Part shown: positions 1,114 to 1,879 of the stretch, in pieces | Numbering within the stretch: position 1 is the stretch's first letter | Layout: every line of letters starts with the position of its first letter | Assembly (NCBI GenBank): GCA_965233585.1 | Contig: CBDDTI010000502.1 | Span: 1-19,284 of the forward strand | Length of the DNA stretch: 19,284 bases | Direction: 5' to 3' | From: a bacterium | GTDB taxonomy: Bacteria; SAR324; NAC60-12 | Program-made: the position numbers and the translations under genes | The notes under the pieces: model-generated | Seen by the model: only the letters and a program-made list of their open reading frames with translations | Told to the model about the DNA's origin: nothing | The model's database searches: none

Positions 1114-1126
1114 TATTTAAGAAAAA
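1114..1126 (+). promoter_or_regulatory. Candidate TATA-variant promoter element TATTTAAGAAAAA
   Basis: Starts 43 nt before the ATPase ATG; an identical 13-mer lies at 1867-1879. Confidence 0.5.
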
Positions 1127-1156
1127 ATTTTTAAATATTTTTCAAAAACTAGCAAA

Positions 1157-1852
1157 ATGGATGGTTTTGATTTAAGGTTCAGTATTCCTTCCAACATGTT
1201 AATTGTTGGCCCAACATCGAGTGGAAAAACAACGTGGCTTAAACATTTAGTGGTTGGTAGGCATGAATATTTTGCAACTCCGCCAGAAACAATGTTGTTG
1301 TTCTACAAAGAACCACAAAAAGCTTATGAATACATGGAAGATGATATGAATCGAGACAAACGTTCAAACTCTCGCTTTCCAACATTTCGTAAATTTAAAA
1401 GTATTCCAAATTCGATTGAAGAACTAAAAGATATTTTGGAATCATATCCAAGAAAAATGCCCAAATTAGTTGTTTTTGATGATTATTTAGACGATGTTGG
1501 ACAAATATTAAAACATTTTTTTACGGTTTTGACTCATCACTACAATTGTTTCACCGTTTTTCTGTGTCAAAATTTATTTGATAAAAAAGGTGATTTGCGG
1601 ACATTAAGCATAAACACTCAGTATATGGTTCTTTTTAACAATCCTCGGGACAGAAGTGCGGTTGCGCATTTGGCTAAACAAATTTTCCCCGGACGAGTCG
1701 GAATTTTAAATAAAGCATACAGGGAAGCTGTTAACGGTCGAAGTCACGGATATCTCCTTCTAGATTTCCATCAACAACAAGACGATAAAGTCAGAATTCG
1801 AAGCAACATTTTTCCGTACGAGGGACTGATGAAAGCTTACGTTACCGTTTAA
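1157..1852 (+). CDS. A32/FtsK-like genome packaging ATPase
   Basis: Walker A GPTSSGKT, Walker B LVVFDD, plus HH...QNLF and RTLSINTQY...FNNPRD motifs typical of Polinton ATPases. Confidence 0.93.
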   Translation: MDGFDLRFSIPSNMLIVGPTSSGKTTWLKHLVVGRHEYFATPPETMLLFYKEPQKAYEYMEDDMNRDKRSNSRFPTFRKFKSIPNSIEELKDILESYPRKMPKLVVFDDYLDDVGQILKHFFTVLTHHYNCFTVFLCQNLFDKKGDLRTLSINTQYMVLFNNPRDRSAVAHLAKQIFPGRVGILNKAYREAVNGRSHGYLLLDFHQQQDDKVRIRSNIFPYEGLMKAYVTV

Positions 1853-1866
1853 AGGATTTTCATATC

Positions 1867-1879
1867 TATTTAAGAAAAA
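1867..1879 (+). promoter_or_regulatory. Candidate TATA-variant promoter element TATTTAAGAAAAA (second copy)
   Basis: Starts 34 nt before the ATG at 1901; identical to 1114-1126. Confidence 0.5.

Follow-up and report, generated by a model that had tools for sequence, protein, structure and literature searches.

The DNA analysed here is a stretch of 19,284 nt (contig CBDDTI010000502.1, positions 1 to 19,284 of the forward strand; the whole stretch is called the window below), and its left 11 kb is a Polinton/Maverick-type element. Two identical 13-mers in this element, TATTTAAGAAAAA, appear from their sequence to be TATA-type core-promoter boxes in a TATT variant, in which an A run comes after TATTTAAG, a reading to which we assign a probability of about 0.7. 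One copy precedes the gene of a putative packaging ATPase, the other the open reading frame (ORF) ORF124. The reading is supported by related elements, in which boxes of the same type recur in sense orientation and at the same distance from an ATG. The element also encodes a TATA-binding protein (TBP) and a TFIIB-like protein, which are considered below as candidate readers of the boxes.

Two identical boxes in AT-rich spacers

The 13-mer is present in exactly two copies in the window, both on the + strand at 1114-1126 and 1867-1879, starting 43 nt before the ATG at 1157 and 34 nt before the ATG at 1901; these coordinates and distances agree with a preliminary description of this DNA. Dinucleotide shuffling of the window (200 shuffles) gave a mean of 0.03 exact copies against the 2 observed, and one shuffle reached 2. 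With up to two mismatches allowed, no enrichment was found over the whole window (9 matches versus 5.58 expected; 26 of 200 shuffles reached 9). The element (1-10950) has 34% GC and contains 20 other repeated 13-letter words; an exact 13-mer repeat alone is not rare in such an AT-rich element, and the unusual part is its location. The copies lie in the spacers 1094-1156 (63 nt, 13% GC) and 1853-1900 (48 nt, 21% GC), two of only three spacers in the window's element that exceed 13 nt. When these two spacers were shuffled as a pair, 55 of 20,000 pairs shared a word of at least 13 nt (P=0.0028), in a test picked once the data had been inspected. The observation holds, and chance is an unlikely cause. 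The flanks of the two copies cannot be aligned. The repeat thus has sharp boundaries, and the idea that a segment of spacer was duplicated was rejected.

A related box on the minus strand, which the preliminary description had placed upstream of the capsid gene, does exist there (TATTAAAAGAAA, 5669-5658, 82 nt from the capsid-candidate ATG), in what is coding sequence of the TBP gene. It agrees with the 13-mer at only 9 of 12 positions. The TBP codons that it covers spell I-S-F-N-T; in the 25 aligned TBP sequences (see below) S23 and F24 never vary, and N25 hardly does. Since it lies on conserved TBP codons, protein constraint and AT-rich codons suffice to account for it, and it was rejected as an independent copy of the 13-mer. 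Another word, CGGTATTAAAA, occurs twice on the minus strand: at 4276-4286, 49 nt before the protease ATG and within the capsid-candidate coding sequence, and at 5662-5672, about 82 nt before the capsid-candidate ATG and within the TBP coding sequence. This sharing is likely due to chance, because repeated 11-letter words are common in the element (113).

Equivalent boxes in related elements

A protein database yielded 35 relatives of the TBP (44-98% identity, about 180 aa). The boxes were compared in the DNA of five distant loci (L001-L005); the loci came from a scan of genome contigs with the TBP alignment, which matched 42 stretches, of which these 5 were confirmed, with TBPs 33-38% identical to that of the window. 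All five lie on contigs binned as bacterial metagenome-assembled genomes. These labels are probably binning errors for eukaryotic or viral DNA, because the polymerase gene appears to be split by introns. The relatives are syntenic with the window: one strand carries the protease along with a capsid candidate about 440 aa long; the other carries TBP, the TFIIB-like gene, an ORF of about 130 aa, the integrase, and an ORF of about 600 aa (ORF6xx). L003 additionally contains PolB, the ATPase, ORF114 (the homolog of ORF124) and ORF284. By eye the N-terminus of ORF284 is like that of ORF486, the gene following ORF124 in the window; tblastn found no match between the two.

For the position of the boxes we considered upstream spacers 44 nt or longer, 19 in all (4 from the window, 15 from the relatives), and searched them in sense orientation at -30 to -50 from the ATG. 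The motif TATWTAAR was found in 9 of the 19, versus 0.48 expected, and none of 5000 shuffles reached 9; the distances to the ATG range from 34 to 48 nt. Such a check of the upstream regions of TBP-bearing relatives had been proposed in the preliminary description, and it does reveal a positional enrichment: in the relatives alone, 7 of 15 spacers contain the motif (0.41 expected). The textbook form TATAWAWR was likewise found in 4 of 15 (0.67 expected, P=0.003). A count independent of annotation, covering six sequences, gave 10 of 58 TATWTAAR sites whose first ATG lies 30-50 nt on and opens an ORF of at least 80 aa, versus 2.1 expected (binomial 4.6e-5). Box 1 has a positional homolog, TATTTAAAG, in front of the L003 ATPase gene, and the region of box 2 is strongly like that of the box before L003 ORF284, flanks included (Table 1).

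The matches are oriented 9 in sense and 2 in antisense, and both antisense matches are in divergent spacers. Several boxes stand in divergent spacers where no upstream gene ends, namely the L003 spacer between ATPase and ORF284 (323 nt) and the TBP/capsid spacers of L003, L004 and L001. As the distance to the ATG is kept even there, and sense matches are in excess, a promoter is favoured over a terminator.

Candidate start sites and two putative promoter classes

In 6 of the 9 cases a CA dinucleotide is found 27-35 nt past the first T of the box (P=0.03). In the window the candidate starts are TCA trinucleotides whose A is at +30 and +31 (Table 1), a spacing that matches the usual distance from TATA box to initiator. 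Two further observations concern leaders and spacers. A 12-nt string, TTCAAAAAYTAG, is common, at 11 of 12 positions, to the ATPase leader (1141-1152) and to 6220-6231, which lies 12-23 nt before the ATG of the TFIIB-like gene. In the spacer of that gene, TATAATAAAAG stands at 6143 and is followed, beyond a short upstream reading frame, by ATCAGTT, the A of which is at 6179 (+36).

The boxes fall into two forms. The TATT class consists of the boxes of the ATPase and ORF124/ORF284 genes in the window and in L003; all four read TATTTAA(A)G and none is followed by CAGT. The TATA class comprises PolB (L003, L004) and TBP (L003, L004, L001), 5 of 5 with CAGT, whose A is at +31 to +33. CAGT in 5 of 5 compares with a shuffle mean of 0.07, and the TATT versus TATA contrast in these nine promoters gives a Fisher P of 0.008. 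Counting all boxed promoters apart from the four of the TATT class, 8 are TATA, or 7 if the L001 TBP box is read as TATT. The ORF6xx spacers (L004, L001) and the L003 capsid spacer are of TATA type and have no CAGT, so the split is not simply one between structural genes and the rest. The sequences suggest a TATT box that is specific to a class of genes and has been kept across distant relatives. Two parts of the preliminary description found no support: the spacers in front of the capsid genes of L003, L004 and L001 carry no consistent TATT; and the label of "two morphogenesis genes" behind the boxes lacks a basis in ORF124, for which no family was found in Pfam or PHROGs.

Several points weigh against the boxes being core promoters, or against the split into classes. 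The motif TATWTAAR, on which the 9 of 19 is counted, was defined after looking at the data, and the TATTWAA motif of the preliminary description is only marginal in the relatives (3 of 15 versus 0.91 expected, P=0.054). Ten of the 19 spacers have no box at -30 to -50: those of TFIIB and ORF134 in the window, of PolB in L003 and L004, of the capsid candidate in L003, L004 and L001, of ORF6xx in L003 and L002, and of o208 in L003; the PolB boxes of L003 and L004 sit at -80 and -76. Most genes of the window are 2-13 nt apart and show no visible box, and no TATA-like box was found within 120 nt upstream of the window's TBP gene. A start at 1898 leaves a leader of 3 nt, awkward for scanning ribosomes. 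The class split comprises nine promoters from four sequences, of which L004 and L001 are mutually related; the register of the L004 and L001 TBP boxes was chosen to fit the CAGT spacing; and the L001 TBP spacer also has TATTTAAG at -40, which, if counted as TATT, brings the Fisher P to about 0.05 (hand calculation, [[4,0],[1,4]]). Finally, the relatives are distant.

TBP and the TFIIB-like protein as candidate readers

That the element encodes a divergent TBP, as previously noted, is supported by a Pfam match of 1.1e-16, by a structural model with a pLDDT (predicted local distance difference test) of 90.7 and a pTM (predicted template modelling score) of 0.79, and by the top Foldseek matches, which are all TBP, full-length, with TM (template modelling) scores of 0.6-0.73 and about 20% identity to solved TBPs. 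Pfam finds only the second TBP repeat, and a PDB profile search aligns only the C-terminal part (about positions 105-178) with solved TBPs; since these profiles reach the second repeat only, the first one is strongly diverged. An alignment of 25 TBP sequences was built from the window and 24 of 36 matches, leaving out 11 partial sequences (100-139 aa) and one of 265 aa at 26% identity. The N-terminus is conserved in it from residue 7 on, and F36, F48, F132 and F147 are invariant. These four residues probably correspond to the two DNA-kinking Phe pairs of yeast TBP. Judged from model and alignment, the protein is a genuine two-repeat homolog and looks able to bend DNA. A mimic of the herpesvirus type (UL87/BcRF1/ORF24) was rejected, the protein being a true two-repeat homolog with four invariant Phe.

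The next gene after TBP is the TFIIB-like one, both in the window, where 106 nt separate them, and in 5 of 5 relatives; their reading frames overlap in L001-L004, by about 34 nt. Among the element's 13 ORFs, no match to a polymerase subunit was found in Pfam, so that RNA polymerase II (Pol II) of the host would be used. The element carries both a TBP and a TFIIB-like gene, a distant relative too has TATT at the two genes in question, and the relatives' PolB and TBP genes use TATA with CAGT. On these grounds the element's own TBP/TFIIB pair may be the preferred reader of the TATT boxes, which we hold plausible but somewhat less likely than not; the remainder of the probability falls on host TBP/TFIID.

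Proposed mechanism and alternative explanations

As core promoters, the boxes would serve two short Pol II transcription units, one of the packaging ATPase and one of ORF124, probably together with ORF486. TBP would bind and bend the box, TFIIB and host Pol II would assemble on it, and transcription would start some 30 nt further downstream, at or close to the TCA with its A at 1144 and 1898, giving very short leaders. Each spacer would then be a minimal promoter placed right after the stop codon of the preceding gene. A two-step programme can be imagined on this basis, which at present we think unlikely: host TFIID-type promoters (TATA with CAGT) would express PolB and the TBP-TFIIB-integrase unit, after which the private TBP/TFIIB would recruit host Pol II, without an initiator, to TATTTAA(A)G in front of the ATPase and ORF124/ORF486. 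If true, it would amount to a herpesvirus-like early-to-late switch made from true homologs of cellular factors in a virus-like transposon of 15-20 kb.

Another explanation, and the full form of the claim in the preliminary description, is a dedicated viral system, in which TATT marks late or morphogenetic genes and is read by the element's TBP (with TFIIB) and not by host TBP, in functional analogy with the late TATT system of herpesviruses. The 4 of 4 TATT boxes at the ATPase and ORF124/ORF284, set against TATA and CAGT in 5 of 5 at PolB and TBP, would fit it, as would the adjacency of the TBP and TFIIB genes in all five relatives and a first TBP repeat too diverged for Pfam and PDB profiles. 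It sits badly, however, with the relatives' capsid spacers, which are TATA-type or boxless at -30 to -50 (a TATTTAG-like string is seen in L004 alone), and with the ORF6xx genes, which use TATATAAAG. With its four Phe and a canonical second repeat, the TBP would be expected to bind in the ordinary TATA-type manner, conserved TBP codons explain the window's "capsid box", and of the genes behind box 2, ORF124 has no family assigned and ORF486 only weak C2H2 matches. We consider this explanation doubtful.

The boxes might instead be 3'-end signals (polyadenylation or termination) of PolB and the ATPase. Both begin 14-20 nt past a stop codon, and AATAAA hexamers overlap or adjoin both spacers (about 1089 and 1878-1883); yet the same box type occurs in divergent spacers of the relatives with no gene ending upstream, where the distance to the upstream stop is undefined and that to the downstream ATG is still kept at 34-48 nt, and 9 of 11 matches are in sense to the downstream gene, which makes such signals quite improbable. 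It is hardly more probable that the 13-mer is an operator for another protein of the element (the C2H2-finger ORF486 or the helix-turn-helix (HTH) of the TFIIB-like protein), its TATA likeness being incidental or partial. The element does encode finger and HTH proteins, the identity runs 5 nt past the 8-nt TATA-like core, and in 4 of 9 boxes (the two of the window, L003 TBP and L003 ORF284) a G and then an A run come next, but all nine boxes share only a core of 8-9 nt with differing flanks, and their distance to the ATG fits a -30 box. Chance likeness of two very AT-rich spacers (13% and 21% GC) is the least probable of these explanations, and very improbable in itself: the 20 other repeated 13-letter words, the lack of enrichment of the loosened motif in the window, and the choice of all tests after the observation speak for it; the spacer-pair shuffles (P=0.0028), the recurrence of the box in relatives with position and orientation kept, and the flank likeness that reaches the L003 ORF284 box region speak against it. 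The late promoter of baculoviruses is a DTAAG initiator used by a viral RNA polymerase. A late initiator of this TAAG kind was tried and rejected: although TTAAG is present in the window boxes, TAAG is missing from 6 of the 9 boxes (five read TAAAG, and the L004 TBP box reads TATATAAAT), and the 13 ORFs yielded no viral polymerase gene.

Gene map of the element and its flank

The element contains the Polinton hallmark set: protein-primed PolB, rve integrase, A32/FtsK ATPase, adenain-like protease, and a jelly-roll capsid candidate (Table 1). The support is uneven: the window's ATPase and protease matches are weak, the capsid is a lead, PolB is identified via relatives, and rve is above cut-off. 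The PolB exon had no direct family match in Pfam, PHROGs or PDB sequence searches and owes its label to relatives that carry PF03175. The L003 homologs give Pox_A32 at 1e-7 (above cut-off) for the ATPase and DJR-like_dom at 2.9e-4 (below cut-off) for ORF449. The window apparently starts inside a polymerase intron, and its positions 1-299 end in an acceptor-like TTTCAG. The polymerase gene is apparently split by short AT-rich introns with TTTCAG-like acceptors (window 1-299, L003 2119-6313, L004 1010-5415). From these introns and the rve/chromo integrase, the element is eukaryotic in type. The L003 polymerase (3734-6313, minus strand) has an N-terminal C2H2 zinc finger (Pfam 1.4e-4, with PDB zinc-finger matches) and an endonuclease VII-like stretch (PHROGs 1.1e-4); several relatives of the window's PolB carry PF02945.

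Table 1. Features of the window and boxes of the related loci; for the latter, the distance to the ATG stands in place of coordinates
Feature	Position	Strand	Remarks
PolB C-terminal exon (protein-primed type B DNA polymerase)	300-1093	+	12 of the at least 120 relatives listed carry PF03175; one is named DNA-directed DNA polymerase
Box 1	1114-1126	+	TATTTAAGAAAAA, TATA-like, TATT variant; 43 nt before ATPase ATG, 20 nt past PolB stop
Candidate start 1	1142-1144	+	TCA, A at +30 from first T of box 1; predicted leader 13 nt
A32/FtsK-like packaging ATPase	1157-1852	+	Pox_A32 8.5e-4, below cut-off; gene behind box 1
Box 2	1867-1879	+	Same 13-mer; 34 nt before ORF124 ATG, 14 nt past ATPase stop
Alternative start for box 2	A at 1891	+	CA at +24 (putative)
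Candidate start 2	1896-1898	+	TCA, A at +31 from first T of box 2; predicted leader 3 nt
ORF124	1901-2275	+	Gene behind box 2; homolog is L003 ORF114
ORF486	2278-3738	+	Two C2H2-like fingers; weak zf-C2H2 and FOXP-CC matches; starts 2 nt after ORF124
Adenain-like protease	3752-4234	-	Weak match
ORF449, double-jelly-roll-like capsid candidate	4238-5587	-	Look-alike clusters partly carry DJR-like_dom
TBP, 180 aa, two repeats, first divergent	5594-6136	+	Pfam TBP 1.1e-16
Third related box	5658-5669	-	TATTAAAAGAAA; inside TBP coding sequence, 82 nt from capsid-candidate ATG at 5587
TFIIB-like: zinc ribbon, cyclin-like repeat, HTH	6243-6962	+	Zn_Ribbon_TF 4.3e-8, above cut-off; TFIIB repeat 0.002, below cut-off
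ORF133	6971-7372	+	
rve/chromo integrase	7379-8461	+	rve 2.5e-9, above cut-off
ORF581	8468-10213	+	Look-alikes are Preplasmiviricota hypothetical proteins
Two small ORFs	10225-10937	-	No family match
L003 TBP box	45 nt to ATG		TATATAAAG + A run
L003 ATPase box	40 nt to ATG		TATTTAAAG
L003 ORF284 box	44 nt to ATG		TATTTAAAG
L004 TBP box	48 nt to ATG		TATATAAAT
L004 ORF6xx box	44 nt to ATG		TATATAAAG
L001 TBP box	40 nt to ATG		TATTTAAG
L001 ORF6xx box	43 nt to ATG		TATATAAAG

The gaps between most neighbouring genes measure 2-13 nt. Boxless chains with gaps of 2-8 nt are formed by ORF124/ORF486, by the capsid candidate and protease, and by TFIIB/ORF133/integrase/ORF581 (2275-2278, 4234-4238 and 6962-8468); ORF486 is possibly in the same transcription unit as ORF124, behind box 2. 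Towards its end (2170-2235) ORF124 encodes first a hydrophobic stretch and then several Arg in a row, as might be expected of a small membrane-anchored protein. Only 6 nt separate the capsid-candidate ATG (minus strand) from the TBP ATG (plus strand) (5587-5594; the L002 gap is 11 nt), and each promoter must therefore sit within the coding sequence of the other gene. L003, L004 and L001 instead have a TBP/capsid spacer of 51-52 nt, with TATA-like boxes near both ends.

The end of the element (10950-12700) is rich in repeats and may be a terminal repeat region: a 122-nt unit is repeated 1.9 times (11373-11598), 32-nt arrays lie at 11892-12057 and 12255-12384, an array of related units at 12389-12529, and 11640-11830 recurs at 12107-12250. 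The flank (12720-19284) contains a broken retrotransposon of the non-LTR (long terminal repeat) type, with RVT_1 at 3.6e-21 (16832-17689) and interrupted frames. In this flank 12949-13290 matches 16466-16801, 12724-12775 matches 19236-19284, and a 36-nt repeat rich in GGAACTAGTTCC is found at 13359-13463.

Comparison with known systems

The transcription of Polintons/Mavericks is hardly known. If the boxes are promoters, the lineage offers a compact and testable system, with minimal promoters of about 45 nt in two sequence classes and self-encoded TBP/TFIIB; it might reveal the way in which host Pol II is captured by a small DNA virus or transposon, and the boxes would be a simple means of marking transcription units when elements of this kind are annotated.

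Nucleocytoplasmic large DNA viruses (NCLDV) are alike in having virus-encoded homologs of general transcription factors, TBP-like factors among them. They differ in encoding their own RNA polymerase, whereas the 13 ORFs of the present element yielded no polymerase subunit. One report counts TFIIB among the NCLDV core proteins (10.1101/2022.05.25.493380).

Another case is a midsize eukaryotic linear dsDNA (MELD) virus with an adintovirus-like PolB, one gene of which is labelled "similar to TATA binding proteins" in the Figure 5 legend of Starrett et al. 2021 (PMC8502044); judging by that legend it is likewise a Polinton/adintovirus-type element with a TBP-like gene. In contrast to the present case, that paper does not contain the word "promoter", and its section 3.4 describes no target box, TFIIB partner or gene-class split. 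A literature search pairing Polinton, Maverick or adintovirus with TBP, TFIIB or TATA, bioRxiv supplements and figures being outside its scope, found nothing relevant beyond this legend, and among accessible texts on Polinton promoter motifs it found only work on virophages and protist Polinton-like viruses.

The canonical TATA/initiator promoter resembles the proposed one in its AT box of 8 nt with fixed polarity, 34-48 nt before ATGs; in the textbook TATATAAAG that relatives have at equivalent positions; and in the CA (or CAGT at the relatives' PolB and TBP genes) found 27-35 nt downstream. Unlike the canonical TATAWAWR, both window boxes have T as their fourth base (TATTTAAG); in addition, the leaders would be only 3-13 nt long, and TBP and TFIIB-like genes are supplied by the element itself.

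In beta- and gammaherpesviruses, late promoters are reported to contain a TATT box, the reader of which is a viral TBP mimic belonging to a late complex of six proteins (PMC7162547, PMC8360532, PMC4922670). The two systems are alike in using TATT for TATA before a subset of viral genes, in a virus-encoded TBP-like factor, and in the use of host Pol II (here presumed). The herpesvirus late-factor families had no Pfam match among the 13 window proteins scanned. The present element differs in having a true two-repeat TBP beside a TFIIB homolog, and both TATA and TATT forms occur within its Polinton lineage; the analogy with the herpesvirus TATT box is therefore at most a functional one.

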